NCBI GenBank assembly: GCA_041306605.1
Contig: JBFZFB010000166.1
Location: forward strand, 1,807 to 65,806
DNA: 64,000 nucleotides
DNA from: Lentisphaerota bacterium
GTDB lineage: Bacteria; Verrucomicrobiota; Kiritimatiellia; UBA8416; JAQBFJ01
Reading direction: 5' to 3'
Below are positions 1 to 34,119 of the stretch, in pieces. Positions within the stretch are counted from its first letter, which is position 1; each line of letters opens with the position of its first letter. Both the position numbers and the translations under genes were made by a program. Under the pieces are notes generated by a model that was not told the origin of the DNA, ran no database searches, and saw nothing but the letters and a program-made list of their open reading frames with translations.

Positions 1-380
1 TAATCATAGTCGTCCGGATTCGGCATCGGCCATTTTGCGACAGTTTCCTCATCCGCATCCTTCAGCGGAAAATCACAGTAATCCCAGTATCCACCCGATC
101 CGTGTTCAATATAACGCGTCACCCAACCCCAGACACTCTCAACATTACGGTTTGGAATCTCCTTATGCAAACGCGGACCTTTATACGCCGCTCCAGTACC
201 ACGAAAATCAACTCCCAGCGCCTTTCGAAACCCTTCCCAGTCATCCTGTTTTACCCCGAAATGCTTCATCATCCGCCTGTTAATATCCGGATTCCCTTCA
301 TAATTAATCGGCACACGATCCGGTTCCTTTAACGCGAATGTCCTCAACACCCTCTCTTTAGATGTCATTTTTCTTTTCAT
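1..380 (-). CDS. URO-D/MtaA-superfamily (uroporphyrinogen decarboxylase-like) protein, N-terminal part; gene continues beyond the window edge
   Basis: Reverse translation from ATG at 380 gives MKRKMTSKERVLRTFALKEPDRVPINYEG..., matching the N-terminal E-R-x-L-x-A-L-x-G-E-x-x-D-R-V-P signature of URO-D/MtaA-family TIM barrels. An AGGGAGG RBS lies 8 nt upstream. No stop before position 1. Confidence 0.6.
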   Translation of the reverse strand, partial: MKRKMTSKERVLRTFALKEPDRVPINYEGNPDINRRMMKHFGVKQDDWEGFRKALGVDFRGTGAAYKGPRLHKEIPNRNVESVWGWVTRYIEHGSGGYWDYCDFPLKDADEETVAKWPMPNPDDYD

Positions 381-523
381 AAAAAAACCTCCCTGCTTTA
401 ATAATTGCCCATAAAATACTTTTAAACGCTTCTTATGTACATGGATAAAAAAACTTTTATTTGTACAAAACAACAAAAAATGTGTTATTTTTAACCTTTG
501 CAATGTACTATTGAAGATAAATT

Positions 524-1405
524 ATGAATTTGCCGCTTAAAACAAAAACCTTTGCAGACGCGGTGATATGCCACGCCAATTACGCGCGGCTCAACCAGCA
601 CTACGGCCATGTCATAAATCCCAACGTTCAAAGTCTAATGTGCCTGTGGTGTAAAAGCGGGAGCGGAACTGTTGTCATAAATAAAAAATCTTTCAATTGC
701 GACGCCGGCGATTATTTTATCCTTCCATGGAATCACCGTGTTGAGTATATCCCCGATGAAAAAAATCCGTTCTATCTCACCGGCATTCATATAATTCCAT
801 GCCACGACAGAAGACACCCGGTTGAATATGAAGTCGCACATAACACCACTCACCGCCTCTATAAATGCCCATGGCGAAAAAACATACCCATCCCCGGCAT
901 CCAAGGAGTGCTTCACCACCACCTCGCCACGGATTCTCCGCTTTTTCTCCTATCCGAATTTGCCGTGCAATTGTTCCGCTCTCAAGAAACCAAAGATGAA
1001 GAACATCTGCGCATGCTGGCGCAAATCTTAATCAAGGAATTGATTCTCGTTTTCAATCCTGCCAGACAACAACCTCCTCTGCCTGTTAATCTCGGTAAAT
1101 TGCTTACTTATATAGAAAACAACCTGACAAACCATATCTCAGTGGCTGAACTCGCCAAGATGGCGGACCGCAGTAAATCCGGCATAACAACACTTTTCAG
1201 AAAACACTGCAACAAATCACCTGTGCGCTGGATTATCGAAAAAAGAATCGAACGCGCCTGCGAACTGCTTTCCACAACAGGCATGCCGATAAAAGAAGCC
1301 GGATCTGCTGTCGGCATCCATGACCAGTTCTATTTCTCAAAACTCTTTAAAAAAATCACAGGTCAGTCGCCTCTCTCGTACCGCAAAGAAAAACTGCTTT
1401 TCTAA
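524..1405 (+). CDS. AraC/XylS-family transcriptional regulator
   Basis: 293 aa. The C-terminal ~100 aa carry the twin HTH of AraC proteins (ISVAELAKMADRSKSGITTLFRKH...GQSPLSYRKE); the N-terminal is a cupin-like sensor domain. Sits directly upstream of the GH116 gene. Confidence 0.8.
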   Translation: MNLPLKTKTFADAVICHANYARLNQHYGHVINPNVQSLMCLWCKSGSGTVVINKKSFNCDAGDYFILPWNHRVEYIPDEKNPFYLTGIHIIPCHDRRHPVEYEVAHNTTHRLYKCPWRKNIPIPGIQGVLHHHLATDSPLFLLSEFAVQLFRSQETKDEEHLRMLAQILIKELILVFNPARQQPPLPVNLGKLLTYIENNLTNHISVAELAKMADRSKSGITTLFRKHCNKSPVRWIIEKRIERACELLSTTGMPIKEAGSAVGIHDQFYFSKLFKKITGQSPLSYRKEKLLF

Positions 1406-1473
1406 AAAACATTGATAATAAGAAATTATTAATGCAATCTATCGCGCCAAAAGAAGGAGATAAAATTTTTATT

Positions 1474-4104
1474 ATGAAAACTTTTTCTTATCAAGGGGCC
1501 AAAACGAAAGAGATCAGTTTCCCATTGGGCGGTATCGGCAGCGGATGTATCGGACTCGCGGGCAACGGCCAGCTCATTGACTGGGAAATTTTCAACAAAC
1601 CCAACAAGTTCGGCCGCAACGGATTCAGCCATTTCGCCATAAAGGCCGAGCGCGATAAAAAAGTGCTTGATGCGCGCGTCCTGCAAGGTGACGTAACGGG
1701 GCCCCGCAGCGGCAACGGCAACGCGAACTTCGGCGGCTTAGGTTTCGGCGTGAACCGCGAAACCATGGCGGGCCTGCCTCACTTCCGCAAGGTTTCGTTC
1801 GAGGGCGAGTTTCCATTCGCTGCACTAACTTTTCAGGAACCGGCCTTCCCGGGCCGCGTGCAAATGACGGCTTTCAACCCGTTCATCCCGCTCAACGACG
1901 CCGATTCGAGCATACCCGCCGCTTTCTTTTCCTTTGATGTCACGAACACATCGAAGAAGCCAATCGACTACACCGTCGCCCTGACAACACGCAATCCGCA
2001 GGACAAGGCAAACGTGAACCGCGCGATGAAGAGCGGCGGCATAACGCTCCTGCACCAGGAGGGCACCGCACTGCCGGCCGATGATGTGAAGTTCGGCGAC
2101 ATCTGCATCGGGACTAACTCGCCCGATTCGAGTCACCAGGAATACTGGTTCCGCGGTGGCTGGTTCGACAATCTCGGCATCTGGTGGCGTAATTTCACTT
2201 CGCCCGGCCCGCTAAAAAACCGCTCATATCCGGAAAGTTCCGGTGGCAACGACCACGCGTCGCTTGCGGCGCGCATCACCGTTCCTGCAGGCAAAACAGG
2301 CACGATCCGGTTTGTTTTGGCCTGGAACTACCCGAACCAGACCAACTACTGGAACCCCGAGAAGAAGGAATGTTGTGGCGAGGGCTGTGCCTGCAAACCG
2401 GCCACATGGCGAAACTACTACGCTACGCTTTTTAAGGATTCCGCCGCCACCGTCCGCTACTGCCTCAAAAACTGGACCCGGCTCTACTCGGAGACACTGC
2501 GCTTCAAGGAAACCCTGTTTGCATCAACCATCCCGGCGCCTGTTCTCGACGCTGTTTCGGCGAATATTTCCATCCTAAAAACTCCCACGGTAATGCGGCT
2601 GGAAGATGGCTCGCTCTACGGCTTCGAGGGATGCCATTGCGGCGCAGGTTGCTGTGAAGGCAGTTGCCAGCATGTATGGAACTACGCGTACGCGCTTCCC
2701 TTCCTGTTCCCGAAACTGGAACGCTCAATGCGCGAGCTGGAATACAGGTACAGCCTCGGCGACGACGGCTCGCTGGCGTTCCGCCTGCAGTTGCCCATCG
2801 GCCGCGCGCGGTCTGCGTTCAGACCCTGCGCTGACGGCCAGTTTGGCACGGTAATGAAGATGTACCGCGAATGGAAAATCTCCGGCGATACCGCATGGCT
2901 CAAGAAGTGGTGGCCGTCCGTGAAGAAGACTATCGAGTATGCCTGGGCGCCGACCAACGCGGACCGATGGGACCCGGAGAAAACGGGCGTTCTGTGGGGC
3001 CGCCAGCATCACACGCTGGATGTTGAGCTGTTTGGACCCAATTCATGGCTCACAGGTTTCTACCTCGGCGCGCTCAAGGCGGGCGCGGAAATGGCCGACG
3101 CCTGCGGGGACCCCGAAGCCGCCGCAGAATACCGCCGCATCTTTGCTAAGGGGAAAGAGTGGACTGACCGTCATCTCTTCAACGGCGAGTACTATCACCA
3201 GGAGGTGAAATTGAAAGATCGCGCCCAGCTAGAGCAATTCAGCACGAAGGGCCCTGACGGCAAATACGCGGCAGGTGAGGCATACAACGCGTACTGGAAC
3301 AATGAACACAAGGAACTGAAATATCAGATTCTTGAAGGTTCCGGCATAGACCAGGTGCTCGCGCAATGGCATGCGAACCTGATCGGGCTCGGCGAAATAT
3401 TTGACCCGAAACAGACCCGGTCCGCCCTGCGCGCCATCTACAAGTACAACTACAAGCCGTCCATGCGCGATTACGCAAACTTCTGCCGGGTTTTCTGCCT
3501 GGAGGACGAAGCCGGCACGGTGATGTTCGACTGGCCAGCCGGCAAGTACAAGCCCATGATTCCGATGACCTACGCCGAAGAAACCATGCACGGGTTTGAA
3601 TATCAGGTTGCTGTCCACATGATACAGGAAGGCATGCTCAAGGAAGGACTGGATGTGGTGAAGGGTGTGCGCGACCGCTATGACGGCGAAACGCGGAACC
3701 CGTGGAATGAAATCGAGTGCGGCAGTAACTATGCGCGATCCATGGCAAGTTACTCTTTGCTCAACGCGTTCAGCGGATTCTCTTTCAACATGGTGAACCG
3801 GCAGATCGGATTCAATCCTGTACATGCTGTTAACGGAAAATTCCGGTGCTTCTGGTCGCTGGATTCAGCATGGGGCGATATAACTATCACCCCGCAAGGG
3901 GCCGTTCTGCAGGTGCTTCACGGAAAGCTCGAATTGAAAAGCATGGCCTTAAGTTTTGCAGACAAGAACAGCACCGTTTCAGCATCCATCAACGGACGCC
4001 GCGTTGCATGCAAACGGATAAAAGACATTATTGACTTCGGAACAGTTATCGCCATCCCGGCAGGCTCATCACTCCGTATAAAAGGAAAACTGAAAAAGCG
4101 CTGA
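1474..4104 (+). CDS. GH116-family beta-glucosidase (glucosylceramidase GBA2-like), cytoplasmic
   Basis: The ORF track gives 1432..4104. Preferred start is ATG 1474 (MKTFSYQGAKT...), preceded by an AAGGAGA RBS. The N-terminal FPLGGIGSGCIGLAGNGQLIDWEIFNKPN is characteristic of the GH116 N-terminal domain. Large (a/a)6-type C-terminal half. No signal peptide. Confidence 0.75.
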   Translation: MKTFSYQGAKTKEISFPLGGIGSGCIGLAGNGQLIDWEIFNKPNKFGRNGFSHFAIKAERDKKVLDARVLQGDVTGPRSGNGNANFGGLGFGVNRETMAGLPHFRKVSFEGEFPFAALTFQEPAFPGRVQMTAFNPFIPLNDADSSIPAAFFSFDVTNTSKKPIDYTVALTTRNPQDKANVNRAMKSGGITLLHQEGTALPADDVKFGDICIGTNSPDSSHQEYWFRGGWFDNLGIWWRNFTSPGPLKNRSYPESSGGNDHASLAARITVPAGKTGTIRFVLAWNYPNQTNYWNPEKKECCGEGCACKPATWRNYYATLFKDSAATVRYCLKNWTRLYSETLRFKETLFASTIPAPVLDAVSANISILKTPTVMRLEDGSLYGFEGCHCGAGCCEGSCQHVWNYAYALPFLFPKLERSMRELEYRYSLGDDGSLAFRLQLPIGRARSAFRPCADGQFGTVMKMYREWKISGDTAWLKKWWPSVKKTIEYAWAPTNADRWDPEKTGVLWGRQHHTLDVELFGPNSWLTGFYLGALKAGAEMADACGDPEAAAEYRRIFAKGKEWTDRHLFNGEYYHQEVKLKDRAQLEQFSTKGPDGKYAAGEAYNAYWNNEHKELKYQILEGSGIDQVLAQWHANLIGLGEIFDPKQTRSALRAIYKYNYKPSMRDYANFCRVFCLEDEAGTVMFDWPAGKYKPMIPMTYAEETMHGFEYQVAVHMIQEGMLKEGLDVVKGVRDRYDGETRNPWNEIECGSNYARSMASYSLLNAFSGFSFNMVNRQIGFNPVHAVNGKFRCFWSLDSAWGDITITPQGAVLQVLHGKLELKSMALSFADKNSTVSASINGRRVACKRIKDIIDFGTVIAIPAGSSLRIKGKLKKR

Positions 4105-4779: not shown

Positions 4780-7700
4780 TTGAAAGAAACTGACAAAAAC
4801 AAGCCTGAGACAACGGGATATACCTCCAAGCATGACCGCGTTCCGCGCGGCATAGCGCGTTACGGTTTCGGAGAATGGGATCGCGCATTGGGCAATCACC
4901 GCGCGGTCATAAAAGTAAACCAGCCCGGCGAGGCGGCATACGCATACCTGCCATGGCGGCGCCACGACGCGTTCCCTCAAGCAAAGCATGTCCGGATTGT
5001 GGACGGTCAGACTGGAAACACCATTACCAACAGCGTGGTTGCCTCCAATAATCGGGAATACGGTGAAATCGTATTTGAGCCGGTCAGCGGCTCAGGCATT
5101 TACTACGCTTATTACCTTGTTCCTACCTCTGACCGCTTTCGCTGGGTCTGGCCACGAAGCTCGTTTCCCGTGACAATGTATGAAACGCCACATTGCGAAG
5201 CTGACAACGTATGGCGCGAAAAACACAACCTGCGTCAGAAAGACATCAGCAGTACACCCGATCCGAAAAACTGGGCCACGCAACGGAACGACTGTTACCC
5301 GGCGCCATGGCGCGACCTGCTGGAAGCCGAACTCGTGGAATTCCAGTCGCGCGGCGAATGGCATTCCTTCTATCCCATGGAAGTCATTGCCACGCTTGAC
5401 GAACGGCTGGAACTCATCAAGCGCTGCGGCAACCGGCCTTTCCTTGCTTTCCCGGAAAGCCGTTTCCGGCCGATACGGATGAACAAAGACATCCCGTACC
5501 ACTGGGCAATACGCAAGGGCGAGGAACTGGCCCGGCTCGAAGAAATCGCGCAACGCAACGAGTACCTAGTGTTCCAAATCGGTGTGTACGCGCACATGGA
5601 TATTCTCGCCAACCTGAAAGCCACGTGGTCCGGGCTGAAGGGAAATGGAAGCCGGTCCATTCCAGCCTCGGCCATAACCTGCTTTAACCTGGAAGGTGTA
5701 AACCAGCACGGCCAGCCTTTTGTAAAGACAGTTCATGTTGGAGCGAAGGAAATTCAGGCATTATGGTTCGGCATAGACATCCCGAAAAACGCGAAGGCCG
5801 GTCACTACGAGGGCACGGTCACGATAACGGCGCAGGATTGCGAGCCGCAGACCGTCACGCTCGTTGTGAACGTTGAAAACAAGGTCATGGTAGACCGCGG
5901 CGACGGCGACGGAACGCGCCTGAGCCGTCTGCGCTGGCTCAATTCCACCTACGCCCTTGACGATCTCGTCTGCGCACCCTACACACCGGTGAAGGTAACC
6001 GGGCGGAGCGTCGGGATTCTGGGCCGTAAGCTTGAACTGGACATGGCTGGATTGCCGGCCCATGCGACGAGCTATATCGAGATGTTTCGTATTCGCAAAG
6101 AAGGCCGCGAAATCCTTTCGGGCCCCGTGCGCCTGGACGCTGTAAAGGGCGGTAAACCGCTTGCCTGGAAAACCGCGATTGCGGCCCATTGCGTGAAGAA
6201 GTCGTCAGGTAAGGCTATTTTTCAATCGACCCAGACGGCGTCAGGGTTGAAGAGGAAGATCGAAACGACGGTCGAGATGGACGGCCGTATCGGTGTGCGA
6301 GTCACGCTGGAAGCGAAGAAGGCGACACGGCTGGATGCCATGCGGCTCTGCCTGAAAATGCCAGCCGGCGTGAGCCGCTACTGGTTGGAATCGGCGCCGC
6401 CGTCGTGGGAGGTGGCGGGCGCTAACAAGCTCGCATTCGAATGCCCTGCACACACGGATAAACCGCTGTCGGCATTCCAGTTTGCATGGATCGGCGACTA
6501 CAATGCAGGGCTCTGTTTGAGCATCGATGCCTGCCCCGGCCCGTGGCGGCAGGGCGGCACTGGCGGCATGTTCCGGCAGAAGACAGACAGCGGGATATGC
6601 CGCATTGAGCTGGACACGGGCGCGCTTACGATTGAAGCCGGCAAGGCTCTCACACTGGAATTTGCGCTGTACATGACACCATTCAAGCCGCTGTCCGTGG
6701 AGCACTGGGACTGGCGCTATCATCACGAGGGGGCTGACCTCGACATCCGGAAGGGGCTTGAAGCCGGGGCGAAGGTATTCACCCAGCACCAGGGTTCACC
6801 CAACAATCCATACATCAATTATATCTTCCCGGTGGCGGACACGCTGAAGAAGATGGCCGAAACGGTTCACAAGAACGGCGGCCTGTTCAAGGCGTACAAC
6901 ACCATCCGTGAGCAAAGCACGAGAACGAATGAGCTATGGGCGCTGAGGAGCCTCGGCCACGAGATTCTCGTTGAATGCACAGGAAATCTCGGCTACGAGT
7001 CCATGGCGCAACTGCCGCTCGAATACCAGCTCCGCAACCAGGTGCACGAGCCGTTCACCGGCCAGCTCTGGATGTGCGAACACCTGGTCGACGACTATCA
7101 TTCGCGCTGGCACAGCTCGATCAGGAATACCGGGGGCGCGCTGATCACAGAGGACAGCTCCGTGCAGATCAGCGGCGCGTCGCGCTGGTCGAATTTCTAC
7201 ATCGAGAGCCAGCGCTGGCTGATGGAGAACGCGGGCGTAGATGGACTCTATCTTGACGGCGTTACTTTCGATCGCCCGTCTTTCATGCGGGTGCGCAAGA
7301 CGCTTGTGCGCCAAAAACCTGAGGCATTGATAGATTTCCATGGCTCACCCGCGGAGGTATGGGACTTCTTCGGTTTTGGCGACAGCCTGTGGTTTGGCGA
7401 GGGCGCGGACTACGGCCGCGAAGCGGCCTACTGGCTGGTGGCGGTGTCAGGCATTCCGTTCGGCATTGCGGGCGAACTGCTCATGGCTGAGGGTAGTTGC
7501 CAGCGCGGCATGGTCTATGGCATATCGCATCGTCTCGGCTGGACACAGGCCGATCCATCGCCGCTCTGGAAGTGGTGGGACAACTTTGAAATCCACAAAG
7601 CCGAGATGCTGGGCTACTGGATGCAGGCGTGCCCGGTGAAAACGAATCATCCGGCCGTGAAAGCCACAGCTTACGTCCACAAGGGGAAGCGCATGGCGAT

Positions 7701-25509: not shown

Positions 25510-26688
25510 CTATTTCCTGATTAAATAAGGTGTTTTATTCAGACGTTCAGCTCCGGTCTTGGTCACCAGAAAACCGTCTTCGACACGTAAGCCGCCCCAC
25601 GGTGTATTGAACATGGGTATATCAATCGAAATCACCATGTCCGGTTTTAACACGGTTTTTGAGCTCGGCCCGAAAATTGGAGCCTCAAATTCAATTACAC
25701 CAACGCTGTGAATGCCGGAATAAAGAAAATAATTTCCCAGCCCGGCATCAGTCATAATACCGCGCCCTATACCTTCCACAATACAGCCCTCTATTCCCGG
25801 TTTTATTGCCTTAAAACACAATGCCTGCGCCTTATTTGCGGCATAAACAGCTTCGATAAGTTTCGGATGCGGCCTGCCTACAATAACCGGCCTTGCGATT
25901 GCCGCATGATAACCTTCATACCGCGGCGCTAAAGTCAGCACTACCAGATCGTTTTTCCCGACCTTGCGCATGGTCGTGCGCGCGAGAATCGGACGCGTGT
26001 TCGGCCCCGACGCAACTATAGTATCAATCCCCATCCCTTCTGATCCCATTCTGCGCATCGCGTATTCCGCTTCCGCCGCTATCTCCCGTTCCGTAACGCC
26101 GGGCTTTATAACTTTCACCGCCGCCGCAAACCCTGCTTCCGCTATTTTGTAGGCGTACTTTATCACCGCAATCTCAGCAGGCGTCTTTATCGCGCGCAAT
26201 GCAAGCACCTGACTTTCCGCGTCTATCCACTTCGCTAACGGCAATGCTTTCCTGAACGACTCCACCAGCTCGCTGTTCATTAAAGATTTTCCTGCCAACC
26301 CGGCGCGTTTTACGGCTTTAGGGTTTTTGGCAACTTCGCGAACAATTTCCGCCAATCCCTGAATTTTAGAGAACGGATAATCCTCGTCAGGATGCGTGAA
26401 CTCGCGCAGAACGCGGACATCGCTTATCTGCCCAACGTGTCTGGCATACTCGTCACTTTCCGGCCCGCAGAGAAGAATCGGTTTGCCGGATGGAAAGATA
26501 AGAATACACACAGGCTCGAAATGAGCCGGATAATCCGCCAGCCAGCGGCCATGCGCCGGACCATACGCCGCCCTGTCATCCGCGTATGCAATGAGAATAT
26601 CCAGCTTCTGCGCGCGCATCATGTTTTGAACTTTTTTCCAGCGCAACGGGTACTCGTTTGGCGGTATTATCGGCATATTTCTCTTCAT
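25510..26688 (-). CDS. M24-family Xaa-Pro aminopeptidase/dipeptidase
   Basis: 392 aa with a creatinase-like N-terminal domain and an M24 catalytic domain. The C-terminal region ends with the typical ...ISIDIPMFNTPWGGLRVEDGFLVTKTGAERLNKTPY. Confidence 0.8.
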   Translation of the reverse strand: MKRNMPIIPPNEYPLRWKKVQNMMRAQKLDILIAYADDRAAYGPAHGRWLADYPAHFEPVCILIFPSGKPILLCGPESDEYARHVGQISDVRVLREFTHPDEDYPFSKIQGLAEIVREVAKNPKAVKRAGLAGKSLMNSELVESFRKALPLAKWIDAESQVLALRAIKTPAEIAVIKYAYKIAEAGFAAAVKVIKPGVTEREIAAEAEYAMRRMGSEGMGIDTIVASGPNTRPILARTTMRKVGKNDLVVLTLAPRYEGYHAAIARPVIVGRPHPKLIEAVYAANKAQALCFKAIKPGIEGCIVEGIGRGIMTDAGLGNYFLYSGIHSVGVIEFEAPIFGPSSKTVLKPDMVISIDIPMFNTPWGGLRVEDGFLVTKTGAERLNKTPYLIRK

Positions 26689-26691: not shown

Positions 26692-27732
26692 TTATTTCCT
26701 CCCTGCTTTTTCTGTGTATTCACGGAACAGTTTTATATAAATTTTATAATTCCCCAGAGAAACACCCGGCGGAGTCTGATGATCAACCGATGGAATAAAT
26801 CCGCCCGATTTCATTACCGGAAGAAGCCGCTCAAATTCAGCGCGCATCTCTTTTTCGCCTTTAGACATAACCATTTTATCATACGCGCCAAGCATCAGAA
26901 ATTTGGGATATCTTTGACGTATTTTAGCCACATCAACACCCGCTTGTCTCTCAAGCGGATAAACACCCTCTATCCCGGCTTCTTCCATCCACGGGATCAT
27001 CTCCGTGATGTCACCATCACTGTCAATAAGAACCTTTGTGCCGGATTTCTTCAGAACCGGAATCAGCTTCTGATAATAAGGCAACAGAAACTCTTTAAAC
27101 AGTTCATACGACAACATCGAACCGTGATTATAAGACATGTCCTCGGCCAAACCGATCATGTCCGGTTTCAAAACAGGAAACAGCGCTTTCATGGCCCGGA
27201 TATGAAACTCCGTAAGATCACTGTTGATTCTGTGCATGAGCTCGGGATAGTCATAGAACGCGTAAAGATGTTTTTCGATTCCGAAAAGCGTTCTGGGAAA
27301 CCAGAAAAAACCGTCCAGCCAGATACGGATGATGATCTCGCCCCTCTCGTGCTGTTCACGCCGATTCATAACGTCTTTCATCAAACCTTCTATTGATTCA
27401 TCAGTGTACAAATACGGAAGTATGGCTTCGTACGTTTTCTCATCTTCTATTATACCGGCGCCATGTGACGCCGGATTAGGACACTTGCCTGATCTCGGGC
27501 CAGCTCCCAAACAGATCATCTTATCTATTCCAAAGTACGTATGAGAACCATCCCATGTGGTATCCTGAGGCATGCCTTCTTTCTTCCAGCGATCAATAGT
27601 CAGATCCCACCACGCGGCCCACTCCACCATAGGCAAACGGTCAAACGGCCTGAAATCCAGCGCCGCATTAAATCTTTCGCGACAATTCATTTCCTTCATC
27701 CTTTTCACGCCTTTCCGCAATATAACAAACAC
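26692..27732 (-). CDS. URO-D/MtaA-superfamily TIM-barrel protein (paralog 4)
   Basis: N-terminus MNCRERFNAALDFRPFDRLPMVEW and C-terminal block KVLIDSDGDITEMIPWMEEAGIEGVYPLE. Separated by only 3 nt from the M24 peptidase gene. Confidence 0.65.
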   Translation of the reverse strand: MFVILRKGVKRMKEMNCRERFNAALDFRPFDRLPMVEWAAWWDLTIDRWKKEGMPQDTTWDGSHTYFGIDKMICLGAGPRSGKCPNPASHGAGIIEDEKTYEAILPYLYTDESIEGLMKDVMNRREQHERGEIIIRIWLDGFFWFPRTLFGIEKHLYAFYDYPELMHRINSDLTEFHIRAMKALFPVLKPDMIGLAEDMSYNHGSMLSYELFKEFLLPYYQKLIPVLKKSGTKVLIDSDGDITEMIPWMEEAGIEGVYPLERQAGVDVAKIRQRYPKFLMLGAYDKMVMSKGEKEMRAEFERLLPVMKSGGFIPSVDHQTPPGVSLGNYKIYIKLFREYTEKAGRK

Positions 27733-28475: not shown

Positions 28476-28486
28476 TTTGCCTTCCG

Positions 28487-28993: not shown

Positions 28994-29144
28994 TATTAAC
29001 CCCATCCCTAAAGTCGTTTCCCTAATTCTGACTTTTTAAATTCTTAATTTTTCTTCTTCTCCATTGACTCAATACCCACATTCATCCACACTTTCCCGTG
29101 ATTTTAAGACCAATGGGAAATCTAAAAAACAGGGAATAAACACC

Positions 29145-31370
29145 ATGAAAAAAAACTGCTCTTATTCAATTATTCTCACGATCCTGACCATGCTTATTAT
29201 CAATTCCTCAACTCTACCCTCTGCCGTCGCCGAAGTGAGCCTTCCTAAAATATTCGGCAGTCACATGGTTCTCCAGCAGGAACAGCCTATCACCATCTGG
29301 GGCTGGGCCAATCCAAATGAAAAAATAACCGTGCAACTGTCATCCCAAACACAAGAAGTGCAGGCAAATGAAAAAGGAGAATGGAAAGCCATCCTGCCGG
29401 CACTGAAAGCTGGCGGCCCTCATACACTCACCGTCAAAGGATCAAACATAATCACATTCGAGGATGTACTTGTAGGCGAAGTATGGCTGTGCTCCGGACA
29501 ATCTAACATGGAAATGGGTATGACTATAATTCAGAACGGTCAGCAGGAAACTGCGGCCGCCAATTACCCCGATATCCGTCTCCTTATGGTGGCCAACCGC
29601 TGGACGCCTGAACCGCAGAAAGATATTGAAGGAACCTGGAAAGCATGCACGCCGGAATCCGCCGCCGAAGGCGGCTGGGGCGGCTTTTCAGCTTGCGCCT
29701 ACTTCTTCGGACGCGAACTGCACAAAACACTGAAAGTGCCGATCGGCCTGATTGACGCCACCTGGGGCGGCACACGCATCGAATCATGGACACCGCCTGA
29801 AGGTTTCGCTGCGGTTCCAACATTTAAAAATGATCTCAACCTCATCCTGATGGGCAACCCCGGCTCTTCTGTTCACAAACAACGCCTCGAACATCTTTTC
29901 CGGCAAACAGAGGAATGGATTTCCGCGACAAAAACCGCCATGAGCAAAGACCTGCTTGAATCTCCAATGCCGGCATACCCGCCTGAACTCGTTTTCCCGC
30001 GCGACCTGCAGAATCCCACCGCGCTCTACAACGGAATGATCCACCCGCTTTGTCCGTTCGTATTGCGCGGCGCCATCTGGTATCAGGGCGAATCGAACAA
30101 CGGCGAAGGCATGCTTTATGCCGAAAGAATGAAAGCTCTCATCGGAGGCTGGCGCAGTATCTGGTCCGCAAAAAATGGCGAATACCCCTTCTACTTCGTC
30201 CAGATCGCGCCGTTCCAGTACGGTATTTACAACATGCCCTCACAGACTGAACAGGAGTTGTGGGAAGCACAGGCGGCCGTGGCAAGGGAAATACCCGGCA
30301 CCGGTATGGCGGTTATAAACGACATCGGCAACATAAAGGACATCCATCCGGTCAACAAACAGGATGTAGGCAAGCGGCTCGCCATGATGGCGCTGGCAAA
30401 AACTTACGGCAAAAAAGACATCGTCTACTCCGGACCGGTTTTCAAGGATATGAAAATCGAAGACAATAAACTCCGTATAAGTTTTGACCACACCGGCAGT
30501 GGACTTGCCAGCCGCGACGGCAAACCGCTCGACTGGTTTGAAATCGCAGACACTGACGACGGATGGTTTGTCAAAGCCGACGCTGTAATAGACGGGGAAA
30601 CAGTTGTTCTTTCAGCCGCCGGTGTCAACAAGCCGGTTGCAATGCGCTTCGCATGGGACGAGACAGCTGTTCCCAACCTGATGAACAAGGACGGGCTCCC
30701 TGCCGGCTCTTTCCGTGCAGGCACAATACCACAGCGCGACTGGATGAGCGCGAATGTGCCGGAAGCAAAAAATTTCACACTTGTCTATGACCTTGATCTC
30801 GCCAAACTAGCACATGATATCAAGTATGATACGGATAATCACACCTCAATCAGCAAGCCGTTCGACCGCATAGCATACAGCCTTGAACTGCAGGGGGGAA
30901 CAGGAAGCATGCAGTGCGTGTATGTCTCAATGGATGCTTTCACGCAGGATCCCGCCAAAATTGGCATTCCGTCCGCTAAATCCGGATCGTTTTTCCAGCA
31001 GAGTATAACCAATATGAACGTTTTCTCGAACGTAAAAGGCATCACCACTGGTATTGGCCTTGCCAGCGGCAATATCGAATTATGGCCGCACAACTATGCC
31101 CAACTCAACACGGCAAATGTGCCTAACGCGTCCGGACAGATATATGACTGCGGCGACCAGCCTGTCGAACCACTGGACGGCTACGGCTCCATGCAGATTC
31201 ACAACAATGAAGCCAAACAGACACTGCTGGCAATCAATCACTGGCCGGCAGGCGTAAACGCCGATATAGGCATTGGGAACAGGGCGTCAGACAACACCGA
31301 CTGGGCATTCGCGGGCAACGCCCAGTCTTTCAAACTCAAACGCCTGCGCGTACTGGTCCACTGCAAGTAA
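29145..31370 (+). CDS. Secreted SGNH/DUF303 esterase (sialate O-acetylesterase-like) with extra C-terminal beta-sandwich-like domain
   Basis: The ORF track gives 29064..31370. Preferred start is ATG 29145 (MKKNCSYSIILTILTMLIINSSTLPSAVA, signal peptide, AGGGA RBS). Signature GEVWLCSGQSNMEMG and later WYQGESN as in 9-O-acetylesterase/DUF303 enzymes. Confidence 0.75.
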   Translation: MKKNCSYSIILTILTMLIINSSTLPSAVAEVSLPKIFGSHMVLQQEQPITIWGWANPNEKITVQLSSQTQEVQANEKGEWKAILPALKAGGPHTLTVKGSNIITFEDVLVGEVWLCSGQSNMEMGMTIIQNGQQETAAANYPDIRLLMVANRWTPEPQKDIEGTWKACTPESAAEGGWGGFSACAYFFGRELHKTLKVPIGLIDATWGGTRIESWTPPEGFAAVPTFKNDLNLILMGNPGSSVHKQRLEHLFRQTEEWISATKTAMSKDLLESPMPAYPPELVFPRDLQNPTALYNGMIHPLCPFVLRGAIWYQGESNNGEGMLYAERMKALIGGWRSIWSAKNGEYPFYFVQIAPFQYGIYNMPSQTEQELWEAQAAVAREIPGTGMAVINDIGNIKDIHPVNKQDVGKRLAMMALAKTYGKKDIVYSGPVFKDMKIEDNKLRISFDHTGSGLASRDGKPLDWFEIADTDDGWFVKADAVIDGETVVLSAAGVNKPVAMRFAWDETAVPNLMNKDGLPAGSFRAGTIPQRDWMSANVPEAKNFTLVYDLDLAKLAHDIKYDTDNHTSISKPFDRIAYSLELQGGTGSMQCVYVSMDAFTQDPAKIGIPSAKSGSFFQQSITNMNVFSNVKGITTGIGLASGNIELWPHNYAQLNTANVPNASGQIYDCGDQPVEPLDGYGSMQIHNNEAKQTLLAINHWPAGVNADIGIGNRASDNTDWAFAGNAQSFKLKRLRVLVHCK

Positions 31371-31373: not shown

Positions 31374-31444
31374 TCATGAAATCCTTCGCGAATAGCGCGC
31401 CGATCCGCGTTATTACTGATAATTTAAAATTAAAACAAGAAGAC

Positions 31445-31473
31445 TTGACTTGTAGCTACACTATAACTACACT
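31445..31473 (+). promoter_or_regulatory. Putative sigma70-like promoter of brnTA with a 10-bp perfect palindrome operator (TGTAGCTACA) in the spacer
   Basis: TTGACT (31445-50), 17-nt spacer, TACACT (31468-73), then ATG at 31480. TGTAGCTACA at 31451-31460 is a perfect palindrome. RHH/BrnA-type antitoxins typically autorepress at such sites. Confidence 0.45.
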
Positions 31474-31479
31474 GTAATT

Positions 31480-31767: not shown

Positions 31768-31770
31768 ACT

Positions 31771-31989: not shown

Positions 31990-32002
31990 GATAAATAATC
32001 AG

Positions 32003-32075
32003 GACTGGACATTCTCCGGCAATGCCGGGTCATTCAAACTCAAACGCCTGCGCGTACTGGTCCATTATAAATAAT
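32003..32075. repeat. Direct repeat copy B (~73 bp) = orphan, in-frame, diverged esterase C-terminus (…DWTFSGNAGSFKLKRLRVLVHYK*)
   Basis: gactggacattctccggcaatgccgggtcattcaaactcaaacgcctgcgcgtactggtccattataaataat. It translates to a variant of the esterase tail DWAFAGNAQSFKLKRLRVLVHCK* (4 substitutions, stop conserved), so it looks like the scar of a lost paralog rather than a target-site duplication. Confidence 0.8.
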
Positions 32076-32130
32076 TTACAAAAGCCGGTTTTTATGCGTA
32101 TTGTATAAATACAGGAAATTAAGGGTTTGA

Positions 32131-33021
32131 ATGAACAATTTTCGATATGACACATCAGGGCACTGGTACAAAGGTAACACTCACATCCACAGCACCGCGT
32201 CAGACGGCGGATGCGACTTTAAAAAGCTCGCCGCCATGTATCATTCTGCCGGCTATGATTTTCTGTTCCGCACCGACCATTGGATAACATCAGACACGAA
32301 AGGCGATACAGAGCCTTATCCCCTGCTCTGGCTGGATGGAATGGAAATGGACGGACAGGACCATTCGGGCTCTTATTTTCACGTGGTATGCCTGGGCCGG
32401 GTAACCGGCGTAAAACGCGAGGACGGATTAGAGGCTGGATTGCAGTCCGCGCGCCGGCAGGGAGCGCTGACCGTTGTTGCCCACCCGCACTGGTGTGGCA
32501 ATTCATTGGAAGACTGCCAGCGATTGCAATTTGACGGCATTGAAGTGTACAACCATGTATGTCAGTGGCTCAACGGCAAGAGCAATGGCTTGGTACACTG
32601 GGACGCCGCCCTCATGTCCAATCCCGATACACTGGCGTTCGCGTCGGATGACGCCCACCTGTGCCCCGAACACCCCGGATGGAACGGAGGCTGGATCATG
32701 GTCAACGCCCCGGAATGCACATATACCGGAATCATGAACAGCATTCACCGCGGTAATTTTTACTCAACCTGCGGCCCTGACATCTATTCACTGTCATTCG
32801 ACGGAACCAATCTGCACGCGACTATGTCACCCGTGCGTTTCGCCCGATTGGTCGGGCCTGGCGCTAACGGCATGAGAACCGGTTCTTTCGATGGAAAACT
32901 GATCGAAACCGTCAGCTTTCCCCTTCCGGACGACTGGAAATATGTCTATCTCGAAATCGAAGACGAACATGGCCGCAGAGCATGGACTAATTCACTGTTC
33001 ACAAAAAATGGTAATCATTAA
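32131..33021 (+). CDS. PHP-domain metal-dependent phosphoesterase/hydrolase (CehA/McbA-like)
   Basis: 296 aa. N-terminal GNTHIHSTASDGGCDF matches the PHP H-x-H...S-D-G motif, with later His/Asp ligands (VVAHPHW, DDAHL). Its stop at 33019-33021 abuts the ATG 33022 of the next gene. Confidence 0.7.
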   Translation: MNNFRYDTSGHWYKGNTHIHSTASDGGCDFKKLAAMYHSAGYDFLFRTDHWITSDTKGDTEPYPLLWLDGMEMDGQDHSGSYFHVVCLGRVTGVKREDGLEAGLQSARRQGALTVVAHPHWCGNSLEDCQRLQFDGIEVYNHVCQWLNGKSNGLVHWDAALMSNPDTLAFASDDAHLCPEHPGWNGGWIMVNAPECTYTGIMNSIHRGNFYSTCGPDIYSLSFDGTNLHATMSPVRFARLVGPGANGMRTGSFDGKLIETVSFPLPDDWKYVYLEIEDEHGRRAWTNSLFTKNGNH

Positions 33022-34119
33022 ATGCAAACATCACGCGATATCATAGACGGTCTTTTCAGGAACAAACCTGTTGAACGCTTGGGATTATACGACTCGCCAT
33101 GGGACGACACCTTTACAAAATGGGTCAAAGAAGAATCATACCCGGCGGATGATAAAGGAAATCCGGTAAACGCAACAGATTTCTTCAATTTCGACATGAG
33201 CGGTTGCGGAGGATGGTTCAACAAGATGCCGATCAAGGACCAAAACGAGATCATTGAAGAATCCGACGAATGGAAGGTAACTCGTAACGGAGCCGGCGCC
33301 GCTTTGAAATACTGGAAACATAAATCCGGCACACCGGAACACATAGACTTCCGCATGACATCCCGCGCTGTCTGGGAAAAAGATTACCGCCACCATCTGC
33401 TCGCCGTTGACAGTTCGCGACTCAACACAGAAAGCACTAGAGAAAACCTGAAAAAACAGCAGGCAAATAATCGCTGGGCATTCTACGGCGACTTGTTCAT
33501 CTGGGAAATGATGCGCTGCAGTCTTGGCGATATATGCATGTACGAATCACTTATTCTCGATCCTGAATGGATTCACGACTACAACCGGGTCTATACCGAT
33601 TTCTTCAAAGCGCACTACAAGATACTTATTGAAGAAGCCGGCAAACCGGACGGAATCTGGCTCTATGAAGATCTCGGCTTCAATAAGGGCCTGTTCTGCT
33701 CACCATCCATTCTCGAGGAACTGATCTTCCCCTACTACAAAGAAATGGTGGATTTCTTCCACAGTTACGACCTGCCCGTTGTTCTGCATTCGTGCGGCGG
33801 CATAAAGGAAGCACTGGGTTTGATTGTCGGAGCCGGATTCGACGCGCTTAACCCCATGGAAGCAAAAGCGGGATGTGACGTCATCTCATTCGCCAAACAA
33901 TACGGCGATAAACTGGCGTTCGTAGGAGAAATGGACGCGAGAATTTTCGAGGCGGGCAATAAAGATCAAATCCGCAAAGAAGTTATACGCCTGTGCACAT
34001 CACTAAAAGATATCGGCGCGCGTTACGTTTTCGGATCCGATCATTCCATATCACCGAATGTGAAACTGGAAAATTTTAAATACGCCATTGATATATACAG
34101 AGAAAACATGATGTATTAA
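33022..34119 (+). CDS. URO-D/MtaA-superfamily protein (paralog 5) with an MtaA-like H-x-C...C putative zinc site
   Basis: 365 aa. N-terminus DIIDGLFRNKPVERLGLY. C-terminal VVLHSCGGIKEALGLIVGAGFDALNPMEAKAGCD carries H-x-C-G plus a downstream Cys, as in corrinoid:CoM-type methyltransferases (MtaA/MtbA). The other four paralogs have Asp/His at these positions. Translationally coupled to the PHP gene. Confidence 0.65.
   Translation: MQTSRDIIDGLFRNKPVERLGLYDSPWDDTFTKWVKEESYPADDKGNPVNATDFFNFDMSGCGGWFNKMPIKDQNEIIEESDEWKVTRNGAGAALKYWKHKSGTPEHIDFRMTSRAVWEKDYRHHLLAVDSSRLNTESTRENLKKQQANNRWAFYGDLFIWEMMRCSLGDICMYESLILDPEWIHDYNRVYTDFFKAHYKILIEEAGKPDGIWLYEDLGFNKGLFCSPSILEELIFPYYKEMVDFFHSYDLPVVLHSCGGIKEALGLIVGAGFDALNPMEAKAGCDVISFAKQYGDKLAFVGEMDARIFEAGNKDQIRKEVIRLCTSLKDIGARYVFGSDHSISPNVKLENFKYAIDIYRENMMY

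Follow-up and report, generated by a model that had tools for sequence, protein, structure and literature searches.

The closest described relatives of the proteins considered here belong to the uroporphyrinogen decarboxylase (UroD) superfamily. They include the MtaA/MtbA/MtsA methylcobamide:coenzyme M methyltransferases (structure 4ay7) and the substrate-side methyltransferases of O-demethylase and dehalogenase systems, namely MtvB, OdmB, VdmB, MtoB and CdmB (PMC13222342). Also related are the Mlp proteins of Kountz and Balskus, whose Type 1 mlp gene clusters set several different UroD paralogs beside a corrinoid protein; clusters with three such paralogs are described. Mlp proteins share over 25% identity with MtaA-type enzymes, occur in obligate anaerobes that are mostly Firmicutes, are accompanied by a RACE activase, and have been proposed to act on methyl-sulfur or methyl-selenium compounds (PMC10418091). 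In classical systems of this kind, the corrinoid protein is usually encoded adjacently. The only carbohydrate demethylases in the literature that we searched are the O2-dependent cytochrome P450 enzymes of marine bacteria, which act on 6-O-methyl-D-galactose (PMC6292453).

Here we consider five genes, P1 to P5, in a 64-kb bacterial sequence (the window, meaning the whole stretch of DNA that was analysed). All five encode cytoplasmic members of the UroD superfamily, and none is HemE. The original prediction placed five such genes among glycosidases and esterases, and its observation is confirmed. Its interpretation, that these are carbohydrate-modifying enzymes, is partly supported. Gene neighbourhoods in related genomes tie several of the families to rhamnose breakdown, probably in an undescribed step such as sugar demethylation.

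Five UroD-superfamily proteins and their gene neighbours

The open reading frames of all five proteins are present at the coordinates originally given, and all five belong to the UroD/MtaA superfamily. The relevant features of the window are as follows.

1–380, minus strand: P1, the N-terminal 126 amino acids of a 360-aa UroD-like protein, divergent from the AraC regulator
524–1405, plus strand: AraC/RhaS-type regulator (Pfam HTH_18, HTH_AraC and AraC_binding)
1432–4104, plus strand: GH116-family glycosidase (Pfam Glyco_hydr_116N and DUF608), no signal peptide on inspection of the N-terminus
9072–11195, minus strand: secreted SASA-type carbohydrate esterase (Pfam SASA, signal peptide seen)
15916–17031, minus strand: P2, 371 aa, with the UroD/MtaA fold but matching no sequence family, motifs QCDF and HLDG
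17099–18202, minus strand: WbsX/GH99-like TIM-barrel glycosidase-like protein (Pfam Glyco_tran_WbsX, 170 bits), no signal peptide
18208–19320, minus strand: P3, UroD-like, motifs WEDICFKNGP, DCDG and PDH (Pfam URO-D, 27 bits)
19331–21946, minus strand: GH78 alpha-L-rhamnosidase (five Pfam rhamnosidase domains), no signal peptide
22768–25479, minus strand: GH106-like glycosidase (Pfam Glyco_hydro_106, a weak 55 bits, distant from the family model), no signal peptide
25510–26688, minus strand: M24 metallopeptidase-fold protein (Pfam Peptidase_M24 and Creatinase_N)
26692–27699, minus strand: P4, a 335-aa UroD-like protein, motifs AEDMSYNHG, DSDG and VDHQTPP
29064–31370, plus strand: second secreted SASA-type esterase (Pfam SASA, signal peptide seen)
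32131–33021, plus strand: 296-aa open reading frame with a PHP-phosphoesterase-like HIHS..SDG motif, no Pfam match
33022–34119, plus strand: P5, a 365-aa UroD-like protein, motifs YEDLGFNKG, HSCG and SDH (Pfam URO-D, 64 bits)
36762–39281, minus strand: GH95 enzyme (fucosidase family) bordering the glycan locus (Pfam GH95 catalytic domain, 455 bits)

The nearest solved structures to the WbsX/GH99-like protein are GH99 endo-alpha-mannosidases (E 4e-5), and the 296-aa open reading frame has weak PDB matches to PHP-family proteins (E 0.05–0.6). The window also encodes a GH123_N-like protein and a radical-SAM/SPASM protein (Pfam), and no haem-synthesis genes lie near P1 to P5. Signal peptides are absent from P1 to P5, as they are from the GH78, GH106-like, GH116 and WbsX/GH99-like neighbours.

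The genes form operon-like runs (GH78, P3, WbsX/GH99-like, P2; and P4, M24, GH106-like), while P1 diverges from the AraC and GH116 genes. After correction of the start codons, which places the true start of P3 (MTNRER) at 19320, the tight spacing that had been reported holds: 3 nt separate the P4 stop from the M24 start, and about 5 nt separate the P3 stop from the WbsX-like start. In addition, GH78 lies upstream of P3 with 10 nt between its stop and the P3 start, and the P5 start abuts the stop codon of the 296-aa open reading frame. Because the spacing to glycosidase and other genes is only 0–10 nt, these genes are likely to be co-transcribed.

The Pfam URO-D model (PF01208) gathering score is exceeded by P3, P4 (62 bits) and P5, with the match confined to the C-terminal half in all three. 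These three are also homologous to each other by BLAST (25–31% identity, E 1e-19 to 1e-24), and P1 and P2 had no BLAST-detectable homology in the comparison of the five. The full P1 gene, recovered from the overlapping Logan contig L002, scores 46 bits against PF01208. Family HMMs found no further copy of the P1, P2 or P4 family in the window, and the P5 family has 5385 cluster representatives at E <= 1e-3.

The best NCBIfam matches of P4 and P5 are MtaA/MtbA/MtsA-type models. The MtaA/CmuA/MtbA models give 25–34 bits (cut-offs 235–600) versus 16–18 bits for HemE (16.5 for P5; TIGR01464 cut-off 303). By hhalign, the P4 profile matches an MtaA-like protein at E 1.9e-4 over 236 columns versus E 0.3 for Escherichia coli HemE, and the P2 profile does so at E 4e-4 over 50 columns versus 0.31. 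Structural matches to the P4 model are URO-D, MtaA and MetE, and the next ones include metal-dependent sugar isomerases and epimerases. On these profile scores, the set is nearer to the methyltransferase branch than to HemE.

The predicted C-terminal motif takes the form HTCG, HLDG, DCDG, DSDG and HSCG in P1 to P5, respectively. The predicted N-terminal motif is exact in P4, loose in P1 and P3, and fails in P2 and P5. The N-terminal HemE motif RQAGR, which is catalytic and substrate-binding, is missing from the set. At the three MtaA zinc positions, 14 of the 15 residues are potential metal ligands, although of differing kinds. The pattern is H-x-C...H in P1 and P5 and D-x-D...D-H in P3 and P4; P2 has H-x-D, its third position not being alignable. 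The active-site positions of P1 read HTCG ... SPTH, and in alignment its HxC and His fall on the zinc ligands of MtaA. Motifs are conserved inside each family, and conserved residues are enriched in Trp, Phe and Tyr.

Orthologs and recurrent gene neighbourhoods

P1 to P5 represent five orthogroups, each 55–70% identical across many phyla. Given this identity and the invariant active-site residues, strong selection must act on these genes. The window is a gathering of five ancient orthogroups rather than one recent or lineage-specific expansion. At least two UroD-like genes lie within about 20 kb in 28 of 67 loci with URO-D-like matches (a confident P4 ortholog anchors 57 of these), so the density of these genes is not due to chance. 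P1 orthologs (60–81% identity) adjoin P4 orthologs in other genomes: the two are adjacent in at least six loci, within about 4 kb in two more, and share a 4-nt overlap in L038 and L048, which makes them translationally coupled. P2-like genes lie directly upstream of P4 in Opitutaceae, and P2 and P3-like genes occur in tandem elsewhere.

The proposed carbohydrate link is borne out best for P4, whose recurrent partners are AraC regulators, GH78 and GH106-like rhamnosidases, RhaM, sugar kinases, class II aldolases and RhmD-like dehydratases. Outside the UroD families, the most frequent neighbours are AraC genes (17 of 57 anchors within four genes; 24–25 of about 80 P4-ortholog loci overall). A GH78 or GH106-like gene is found in 11 of 80 P4 loci from many phyla (GH78 in 7), four being adjacent or one gene away; GH106-like homologs are directly adjacent in L019, L079 and L089, and in L035 the distance is one gene. 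RhaM lies 1–2.5 kb from P4 orthologs in seven loci, and the six from Opitutaceae also hold a class II aldolase, four with a detected FGGY kinase. In Caldicoprobacter algeriensis, an FGGY kinase is directly upstream of P4, and RhmD-like dehydratases are directly upstream of P1-P4 pairs in 7–8 Chloroflexi-type loci, with no RhmA-type aldolase near those pairs. RhaA, FucI and RhmA are absent from every P4 locus examined, and the AP_endonuc_2 family, present in other P4 loci, is found in none of the six Opitutaceae loci. P4 occurs in both phosphorylative and non-phosphorylative L-rhamnose gene clusters, which suggests that its step lies upstream of both.

The link extends to P3, since its pairing with the WbsX-like gene recurs in L171 (60% and 46% identity, respectively), where WbsX and UroD-like genes, P3, P4 and RhaM occur together. 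It does not extend to the P2 family, for which no conserved CAZyme or sugar neighbourhood was found. Nor are the GH116, GH95, esterase and M24 peptidase genes, all present in the window as described, conserved partners (0 of 80 P4 loci); besides the window, only L001, a contig of the same sample, showed the P4-M24 pairing. In L003, the P4 ortholog and a GH116 gene are about 4 kb apart. Uronate-specific genes do not recur in P4-ortholog neighbourhoods.

Corrinoid machinery is seen beside these families in a few other genomes. L128 and L169 carry a tandem of a P5-like gene, a P2 ortholog, a P3-like gene and a B12-binding protein with a DxHxxG motif. P3-like genes (33% identity to P3) adjoin corrinoid proteins in these loci and in L012, which also encodes RACo, PocR-AraC, a Met_synt_B12-like protein, a P4 ortholog and an MtaA-like URO-D. 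L128, L012 and L004 have mutually orthologous corrinoid proteins (60–73% identity). In C. algeriensis, a corrinoid protein, CobW and a 453-aa URO-D lie 3–6 kb from the P4 ortholog; here and in L012, the corrinoid protein could be the partner of the canonical MtaA-like neighbour rather than of P4. A run in C. oshimai comprises GH78, two UroD-like genes, P4, PfkB, an apiosidase-like gene and the N-terminal half of MetH, and a MetH-like gene adjoins the P4 ortholog in L011. The RACo neighbour in L084 is coincidental and belongs to an ACS/CODH cluster.

Candidate functions

We tentatively favour, while stopping well short of calling it probable, the reading that P1 to P5 are cytoplasmic, metal-dependent enzymes that serve 6-deoxyhexose catabolism by stripping O-methyl sugars of their methyl groups through corrinoid-linked methyl transfer. 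As accessory enzymes for glycans of the rhamnose or fucose type, they would act on imported oligosaccharides or on sugars freed by the neighbouring rhamnosidases. The likeliest chemistry would be the methyl transfer documented for the non-HemE branch of the superfamily. One paralog would pass the methyl group of an O-methylated sugar to cob(I)alamin on a corrinoid protein whose gene lies elsewhere in the genome, and an HxC-type partner (P1 or P5) or else a MetH-like protein would hand it to a thiol or tetrahydrofolate. Once unmasked, the sugar would be fed into the ordinary rhamnose pathway, and the paralogs might be divided by methyl position or by sugar, each with its own AraC regulator. A donor-side methyltransferase and its acceptor-side counterpart would be expected to pair up as the different UroD-like families do.

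The demethylation originally suggested gains some support from the corrinoid proteins, RACo and MetH parts found beside P2, P3-like and P4 genes in a few genomes, but the 64-kb window holds no corrinoid protein, RACo or pterin methyltransferase, and corrinoid-type genes lie within 10 kb in only about 5 independent loci of about 90 large ones. The complete MtaA zinc motif, HxC...C, is found in none of the five paralogs. Several carriers bear the labels of aerobic taxa (Chthonomonas, Capsulimonadaceae and many Opitutaceae), and cleaving alkyl methyl ethers with Co(I) poses a harder chemical problem than cleaving the aryl ethers handled by known enzymes. The lack of a conserved sugar context for the P2 family also counts against demethylation.

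A close rival, possible though somewhat doubtful, is that the UroD barrel, equipped with a carboxylate/histidine metal site, now serves new metal-dependent steps of 6-deoxyhexose catabolism that involve no methyl transfer. Candidates would be a substitute for L-rhamnose isomerase, a rhamnono-lactonase, a 2-keto-3-deoxy-rhamnonate aldolase, or a hydrolase or lyase for disaccharides that contain rhamnose. RhaM, kinase and aldolase genes beside P4 in loci lacking RhaA fit a replacement isomerase equally well. Also in favour of this rival are the missing FucI, RhmA and (in Opitutaceae) AP_endonuc_2 genes, the kinase upstream of P4 in C. algeriensis, and RhmD-like dehydratases with no RhmA-type aldolase nearby. 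The ED, DxD and DH motifs of P3 and P4 resemble the ligand sets of xylose-isomerase-type barrels; the aromatic conserved residues are as in sugar-binding sites, the isomerases and epimerases among later structural matches to P4 agree, and about 90% of loci lack a nearby corrinoid gene. However, no known member of the superfamily catalyses such reactions, and an isomerase or aldolase step suits one type of rhamnose gene set, whereas P4 occurs with both. This proposal also leaves unexplained the pairing of different UroD-like families, the tandem cassette of P2, P3-like and corrinoid-protein genes, and the arrangement in L012.

It seems unlikely that the proteins are corrinoid-dependent methyltransferases for small non-sugar compounds (methyl-sulfur or methyl-selenium compounds, as proposed for mlp clusters, or methoxylated aromatics) whose glycosidase setting is incidental or regulatory. 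Membership of the same superfamily as the MtaA-like Mlp proteins, the L128 cassette, shaped like clusters of three UroD paralogs and a corrinoid protein (PMC10418091), and the lack of a conserved sugar neighbourhood around P2-family genes would all suit this idea. Nevertheless, adjacency to GH106-like, GH78, RhaM and RhmD-like genes recurs in at least eight phylum-level lineages, often with gaps below 250 bp or in the same gene run; the window spacing implies co-transcription, the main partners are AraC-type regulators, and the proteins match characterised methyltransferases at identities far below the 25% that defines Mlp proteins.

Decarboxylation of carboxylated sugars (uronic or aldonic acid derivatives), which the original prediction gave as an alternative and for which the family name is the one support, is very improbable. 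The fold's founding member decarboxylates without a cofactor, and RhmD-like sugar-acid dehydratases are neighbours in Chloroflexi-type loci, but the absence of RQAGR, profiles nearer to the methyltransferase branch and the lack of recurring uronate genes all argue otherwise. HemE chemistry relies on the pyrrole ring, and we know of no analogous sugar decarboxylation in the UroD fold. That these are ordinary uroporphyrinogen decarboxylases or degenerate copies, as the Pfam family name alone would have it, is effectively refuted by the TIGR01464 scores (no match in P2, P3 or the P1 fragment), the loss of RQAGR, the cross-phylum conservation and the non-haem context.

Comparison with known systems

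HemE differs from P1 to P5 in its RQAGR substrate-binding motif, in profile comparison (hhalign E 0.3, TIGR01464 far below cut-off) and in genetic context. The MtaA/MtbA/MtsA enzymes share C-terminal motifs with the set: the MtaA zinc ligands align with HxCG of P1 and P5, and its GG..APGCG..P aligns with GGFIPSVDHQTPP of P4. Yet identity is only 10–17%, with bit scores far under the model cut-offs. The third zinc ligand is Cys in MtaA and His in P1, P3, P4 and P5, and HxC becomes DxD in P3 and P4 and HxD in P2. Unlike in MtaA systems, coenzyme M use is not known in the hosts, and the context is one of glycoside hydrolases and rhamnose genes with no corrinoid protein in the window.

Type 1 mlp clusters have side-by-side UroD-family paralogs with a corrinoid protein and no tetrahydrofolate methyltransferase, a layout that the L128/L169 cassette shares, but the P1 to P5 families are far more divergent, are spread over many phyla and show links to rhamnosidase and rhamnose genes. 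The P450 demethylases are a possible functional analogue, because they remove an O-methyl group that otherwise blocks sugar catabolism, although their fold is unrelated and their oxidative mechanism requires O2 and redox partners.

MtvB, OdmB, VdmB, MtoB and CdmB act on aryl methyl ethers or halomethanes rather than sugars, and their genes accompany those for a corrinoid protein, an activase and a second methyltransferase; the similarity of P4 to CdmB is marginal (E 0.37). Even so, they belong to the same superfamily, some use zinc and others do not, many paralogs with differing substrates occur per genome, and the methyl-group transfer that they carry out from an ether or halide to Co(I) is the chemistry that we propose for P1 to P5.

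Superfamily membership and orthogroups

All five open reading frames in which UroD-like (URO-D/MtaA-superfamily) proteins had been predicted are real, and each product falls into an orthogroup of its own:

1-380, minus strand: P1, truncated to 126 aa at the window edge
15916-17031, minus strand: P2
19320-18208, minus strand: P3 (18208-19389 with the uncorrected start codon)
27699-26692, minus strand: P4 (26692-27732 with the uncorrected start codon)
33022-34119, plus strand: P5

The P1 fragment returned only short fragments when used as a homolog query. The complete gene was recovered from a Logan contig (L002) that overlaps the window start, and its full-length product (360 aa) scores 46 bits against PF01208 (URO-D), whose gathering score is 23.9 bits. 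In the Pfam search of the window, P3 (27 bits), P4 (62 bits) and P5 (64 bits) pass the same model, with the match confined to the C-terminal half of each protein. P2 alone has no PF01208 match at E <= 1, and nothing that would place it by sequence was found in Pfam, in NCBIfam, by phmmer against PDB or in a PDB search with a 30-sequence profile; the hhalign comparison with the P4 family is weak (probability 29%). P2 is placed in the UroD/MtaA fold by structure prediction alone. P3, P4 and P5 are homologous to one another (25-31% identity), P1 and P2 lie outside BLAST range of the other paralogs, and a profile comparison ties P1 to the P4 family with 81% probability. No solved structure was found to be closer than URO-D or MtaA (10-17% identity), and HMMs of the P1, P2 and P4 families detected no sixth UroD-like copy in the window. 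The searches with URO-D and MtaA/CmuA models and the structure predictions, both proposed with the original prediction, agree with its assignment of P1-P5 to the UroD superfamily, and a (beta/alpha)8 barrel of URO-D/MtaA topology was found. It is firmly established that these are UroD-superfamily enzymes of a non-HemE kind.

Residues at three positions common to an alignment of P1-P5, E. coli HemE, a stretch of MtaA and two canonical neighbours
Position A: strand ending ED (P1, P3, P4, P5) or CD (P2); single D in HemE and MtaA
Position B: HTCG (P1), HSCG (P5), DCDG (P3), DSDG (P4), HLDG (P2); HICG in MtaA, FTKGG in HemE
Position C: PTH (P1), SDH (P5), PDH (P3), VDH (P4); GCG in MtaA, GHG in HemE

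Positions B and C hold the zinc ligands of MtaA. Potential metal ligands are kept at both positions in all five proteins, except in P2 at position C, where there is no reliable alignment, and the ligand set varies by orthogroup. Residues at the three positions vary little or not at all within the P2 and P4 families, and P1 and P5 conserve them too; among the available P3 relatives, mostly distant ones, they are less strictly kept.

The paralogs had been taken for an old, maintained expansion; their age is upheld, although what we find is five ancient orthogroups instead of one expansion. A total of 3754 database relatives was found for P2. The 120 best, from Verrucomicrobia, Armatimonadota, KSB1, Chitinivibrionales and others, all share 55-69% identity with it. 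All 120 lack a Pfam domain, and JGI names some of them methionine synthase. For P4 there are 6407 relatives (best 120 at 62-86% identity), and a scan of species genomes found relatives in 307 species. The best 80 from that scan (57-68% identity) are spread over Latescibacterota, Verrucomicrobiota, Clostridia, Anaerolineae, Atribacteria, Armatimonadota, Planctomycetota, Fibrobacterota, Spirochaetes, Hydrogenedentes, Victivallales and Kiritimatiellia. P1 orthologs share 60-81% identity, the closest (81%) being in a Verrucomicrobia MAG, a P3 ortholog was found at 60% identity, and for P5 the 50%-identity cluster representatives include 5385 relatives, with a best identity of 60%. Such cross-phylum conservation of the orthogroups points to fixed small-molecule substrates. 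Entries of the P2 family are often named ‘5-methyltetrahydrofolate--homocysteine methyltransferase’ by JGI despite having no detectable Pfam domain, which looks like an annotation artefact and also fits a distant resemblance to MetE/MetH-type methyltransferases.

Gene neighbourhoods in the window and in related genomes

Pfam bore out the neighbours that had been named from the sequence (GH116, two SASA esterases, GH78, GH106-like, M24 and GH95) and added a GH123_N-like protein and a radical-SAM/SPASM protein. Two minus-strand runs are tightly spaced when computed with corrected start codons:

Run 1, minus strand: P4, 3 nt, M24-fold protein, 30 nt, GH106-like gene
Run 2, minus strand: GH78, 10 nt, P3, about 5 nt, WbsX/GH99-like gene, 67 nt, P2, 77 nt, secreted 1536-aa protein, secreted SASA esterase

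An AraC regulator, divergent to P1, precedes the GH116 gene. No signal peptide is present on P1-P5 or on the GH116, GH78, GH106-like, WbsX-like and M24 proteins, and the SASA esterases and the 1536-aa protein do carry one, from which we infer that the UroD-like proteins act in the cytoplasm together with intracellular exo-glycosidases. P5 begins immediately after the stop codon of a 296-aa ORF (32131-33021, plus strand), with no base between them. This ORF contains a PHP-phosphoesterase-like motif (THIHSTASDGG), and has no Pfam match and only weak PDB matches to PHP proteins; one homolog of it lies in a P2 locus (L156).

Several other features of the stretch deserve mention. The SASA esterase at 9072-11195 and the 1536-aa protein at 11228-15838 (F5/8-type-C, FG-GAP and InlB-repeat type), both on the minus strand, have nearly identical N-terminal regions of ~60 aa, consisting of the signal peptide and AGYTNQNFDNW...GTYTN.DGWIM.NGKI, which suggests a duplicated leader module. 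At 4780-9097 on the plus strand the GH123_N-like protein (918 bits, PF19543) is followed by the overlapping radical-SAM/SPASM protein, which is of the anaerobic sulfatase-maturase type; the window has no sulfatase gene. Two short overlapping ORFs (124 and 139 aa; 22012-22757, minus strand) between the GH106-like gene and GH78 resemble, by eye, pieces of glycosidase-related domains and may be a frameshifted or decayed gene. From 40 to 64 kb the window holds housekeeping genes and no B12-binding protein, and a Bro-N domain protein of phage or mobile-DNA type (40057-40905, minus strand) lies at the border between these genes and the glycan locus. The ATP synthase run (57026-63631, minus strand) has tandem alpha-like genes (62168-63631 and 60721-62205), both with ATP-synt_ab and ATP-synt_ab_C domains, followed by delta/OSCP, gamma and beta, which is not the usual b-delta-alpha-gamma-beta order.

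For comparison, we called ORFs in 80 P4 loci (1.23 Mb), meaning the surroundings of P4 orthologs elsewhere, and in 80 metagenomic P2 loci (0.72 Mb), and searched them with the window proteins, family HMMs and E. coli reference enzymes; high-GC Opitutaceae loci were analysed by six-frame searches. Most neighbours were identified locally with phmmer or jackhmmer, using proteins of the window or of E. coli as queries; ORF calls are crude at high GC, and the counts stand without a genome-wide background, with the P2 loci providing a rough internal control for enrichment near P4. Besides the UroD-like families, only three window gene families recur in the 80 P4 loci: AraC (24 loci), GH78 (7) and GH106-like (6), with one or other of the two glycosidases in 11 of the 80. 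The expected conservation of neighbours in related genomes therefore holds for GH78 and GH106-like genes near P4 but fails for GH95, GH116, the esterases and the peptidase, and in the same 80 loci there is likewise no GH123-like, WbsX-like or radical-SAM gene. We rejected M24, GH116, GH95, SASA, the radical-SAM protein, the 1536-aa protein and the P5-adjacent ORFs as conserved partners (0/80 P4 and at most 1/80 P2 loci). Outside the 80-locus scan, one locus (L003) has GH116 near a P4 ortholog. The P2 family has no conserved sugar neighbourhood, with one GH78, one GH95 and two AraC loci in 0.72 Mb.

Different paralogs frequently occur together. At least two UroD-like genes are present in 28 of the 67 loci with URO-D-like matches, 57 of which are anchored on a confident P4 ortholog. 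P1 orthologs (>490 bits) adjoin P4 orthologs in six loci, overlapping by 4 nt in two of them (L038 and L048), and lie ~4 kb or less away in two more. In Opitutaceae, P2-like genes are directly upstream of P4, and all three annotated P2 loci contain further PF01208 genes.

The surroundings of P4 repeatedly include rhamnose genes. A GH106-like gene sits directly beside P4 (gaps of 37-234 bp) in one Clostridiales, one Kiritimatiellia and one unclassified genome, and one gene away from it in an Anaerolineae genome, the same arrangement as in the window. RhaM is encoded 1-2.5 kb from P4 in six Opitutaceae loci, which also have a class II aldolase and, in four of the six, a detected FGGY kinase. RhaM is also within this distance of P4 in L171, a locus resembling much of the window, where a WbsX ortholog, a UroD-like gene, DUF6259, an MFS transporter and a WbsX-like gene are followed by a P3 ortholog, GH1, the P4 ortholog, RhaM and a hybrid sensor/AraC regulator. 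In 7-8 Chloroflexi-type loci the P1-P4 pair has a close homolog of E. coli L-rhamnonate dehydratase upstream of it (E 1e-61 to 1e-65). With E. coli queries, RhaA, RhaD and RhmA were found neither in the window nor in any P4 or P2 locus, and RhaT and FucI were absent from the loci searched with E. coli reference enzymes.

Most of the Chloroflexi-type loci with the dehydratase also encode a glycyl-radical enzyme a few kilobases downstream, or directly after P4 in L052. This enzyme is short (~705 aa) and occurs in Chloroflexi/Latescibacterota loci L029, L030, L031, L052, L063 and L083 (e.g. L052:6517-12158); in the Chloroflexi-type loci it is accompanied by as many as three paralogs of the enolase superfamily, including one that is RhmD-like, and together these may form a separate anaerobic deoxy-sugar module. 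Two Clostridia have apiosidase-like (GH140-type, PF13204) genes near P4 orthologs (L023:12023-13360 and L019:2804-4135), which hints at substrates like rhamnogalacturonan-II. That polysaccharide contains 2-O-methyl-fucose and 2-O-methyl-xylose. An assignment of the WbsX domain to GH168 fucanases was abandoned, given that its nearest solved structures are GH99 enzymes and that a literature search did not join the names.

Corrinoid genes and candidate functions

Corrinoid-dependent O-demethylase-type systems combine a substrate methyltransferase with a corrinoid protein (a small B12-binding protein), a second methyltransferase and an activase. The 64-kb window encodes no corrinoid protein and no activase, but such genes accompany relatives of P2, P3, P4 and P5 in a few other genomes. 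A tandem of a P5-like gene, a P2 ortholog (55% identity), a P3-like gene and a B12-binding protein of 211 aa with a DLHDIG motif is found on L128 and L169, related metagenomic contigs whose flanks differ. A Bacillota MAG locus (L012) brings together the activase RACo, PocR-AraC, a corrinoid protein, a Met_synt_B12-like protein and an AraC gene with a P3-like gene, a P4 ortholog and an MtaA-like URO-D; it also encodes a lactonase and an ABC-transporter-type solute-binding protein. In Caldicoprobacter algeriensis, PocR-AraC, a corrinoid protein and CobW occur with a 453-aa URO-D, an FGGY kinase, a P4 ortholog and PfkB, and the run in C. oshimai comprises GH78, UroD-like, unknown, UroD-like, P4, PfkB, an apiosidase-like GH140-type gene and the N-terminal half of MetH. 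A full MetH-like gene adjoins the P4 ortholog of a Verrucomicrobiota MAG (L011). Three of the corrinoid proteins (L128, L012 and L004) are mutually 60-73% identical and two P3-like genes are 80% identical, which argues that one corrinoid protein lineage travels with these families.

A RACo gene beside P4 in L084 was discounted as support, since it is part of an acetyl-CoA synthase/CO dehydrogenase cluster. This cluster (L084:11190-19310, including CdhD, RACo and DUF3786) adjoins GH78, AraC and UroD-like genes in a MAG labelled Akkermansia muciniphila, for which it is unexpected, and this suggests that the MAG is mis-binned or mislabelled.

We infer an accessory role for at least P4, P3 and P1 in the catabolism of glycans containing 6-deoxyhexoses, chiefly L-rhamnose. 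P4 occurs directly beside rhamnosidase-like genes and in rhamnose gene sets of both types, phosphorylative and non-phosphorylative, which leads us to place it upstream of both pathways, with a rhamnoside or some modified rhamnose as its possible substrate. The best-integrated mechanism would be the corrinoid-linked removal of O-methyl groups from sugars, a choice we make tentatively and at somewhat less than an even chance, because it joins the documented chemistry of the superfamily, methyl transfer to and from corrinoids (PMC13222342, PMC10418091), with the way different paralogs pair and with the corrinoid protein that travels alongside them. One UroD-like paralog would move the methyl ether of O-methyl-rhamnose, O-methyl-fucose or O-methyl-xylose onto Co(I), and a second paralog of the HxC type (P1 or P5) or a MetH-like protein would hand the methyl group on. 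The demethylation suggested in the original prediction gains some support from the corrinoid genes beside P2, P3-like and P4 genes in other genomes. That the P1-P5 families are components of an oxygen-independent, cobalamin-dependent carbohydrate O-demethylase we would still call doubtful.

The corrinoid association extends to only ~5 independent loci of roughly ninety large ones, and in ~90% of loci no corrinoid protein or activase is present within 10 kb. This scarcity, together with the RhaM, kinase and aldolase neighbourhoods and the lack of RhaA in P4 loci, would be expected if the proteins instead perform new metal-dependent steps of rhamnose catabolism proper, such as that of an isomerase replacing RhaA. 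We consider this close rival nearly as probable as corrinoid-linked demethylation, though it leaves the corrinoid cassettes unexplained. Decarboxylation, the other activity first proposed for these sugars, has essentially no support, and the same is true of haem synthesis, discarded on absent motifs, low model scores and context.

Pectin side chains, bacterial envelopes and the slimes of algae and cyanobacteria contain methylated sugars. These have been described as blocking carbohydrate degradation, and the only carbohydrate demethylase that we found in the searched literature is an O2-dependent P450 (PMC6292453). Full-text searches found no corrinoid sugar demethylase and nothing that joins UroD-family proteins to glycan loci. 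If the P1-P5 families were its anaerobic or cobalamin-based counterpart, they would constitute a widespread route to methylated deoxy-sugars in at least 15 phylum-level lineages, fill a gap in how glycans from plants, algae and microbes are mineralised in guts, sediments and soils, and extend corrinoid methyl-transfer chemistry to aliphatic sugar ethers. Should they catalyse new core steps of rhamnose catabolism instead, rhamnose clusters that seemingly have no isomerase or aldolase would be explained. On either reading, annotation is wrong or missing for several thousand database proteins that now carry the labels ‘uroporphyrinogen decarboxylase’, ‘methionine synthase’ or ‘hypothetical’, and cultured Caldicoprobacter strains carry testable partners.

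Comparison with known systems

Searches with the canonical rhamnose enzymes RhaA, RhaD and RhmA of E. coli gave no match to P1-P5; the homologs of RhaM and RhmD are separate proteins encoded near UroD-like genes. The set also differs from a Type 1 mlp cluster, which by definition (PMC10418091) contains a corrinoid protein, a RACE activase and two or more Mlp proteins with >25% identity to MtaA-type enzymes, in that P1-P5 share 10-17% identity with MtaA and the window has neither of the two partner genes. HemE carries the N-terminal substrate-binding motif PxWxMRQAGR (RQAGR), where P1-P5 show gaps or unrelated residues in comparison with E. coli HemE. Against the HemE model TIGR01464, P4 scores 17.9 bits and P5 16.5 bits, for an equivalog cut-off of 303 bits, and no match was obtained for P2, P3 or the P1 fragment.

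The methyltransferase branch is somewhat closer. With the NCBIfam MtaA/CmuA/MtbA models P4 and P5 score 25-34 bits (best 32 and 34, respectively), nearer than to hemE (16-18 bits), although every score falls far short of the cut-offs of 235-600 bits; P2, P3 and the P1 fragment have no match to these models. Aligned with an MtaA-like protein, the P4 profile reaches E 1.9e-4 across 236 columns; for the P2 profile the value is E 4e-4, across 50 columns only. Against E. coli HemE both reach only E 0.3. In place of the H-x-C-x(n)-C zinc motif of MtaA, CmuA and MtbA, P1 and P5 keep the first two ligands and have His as the third.
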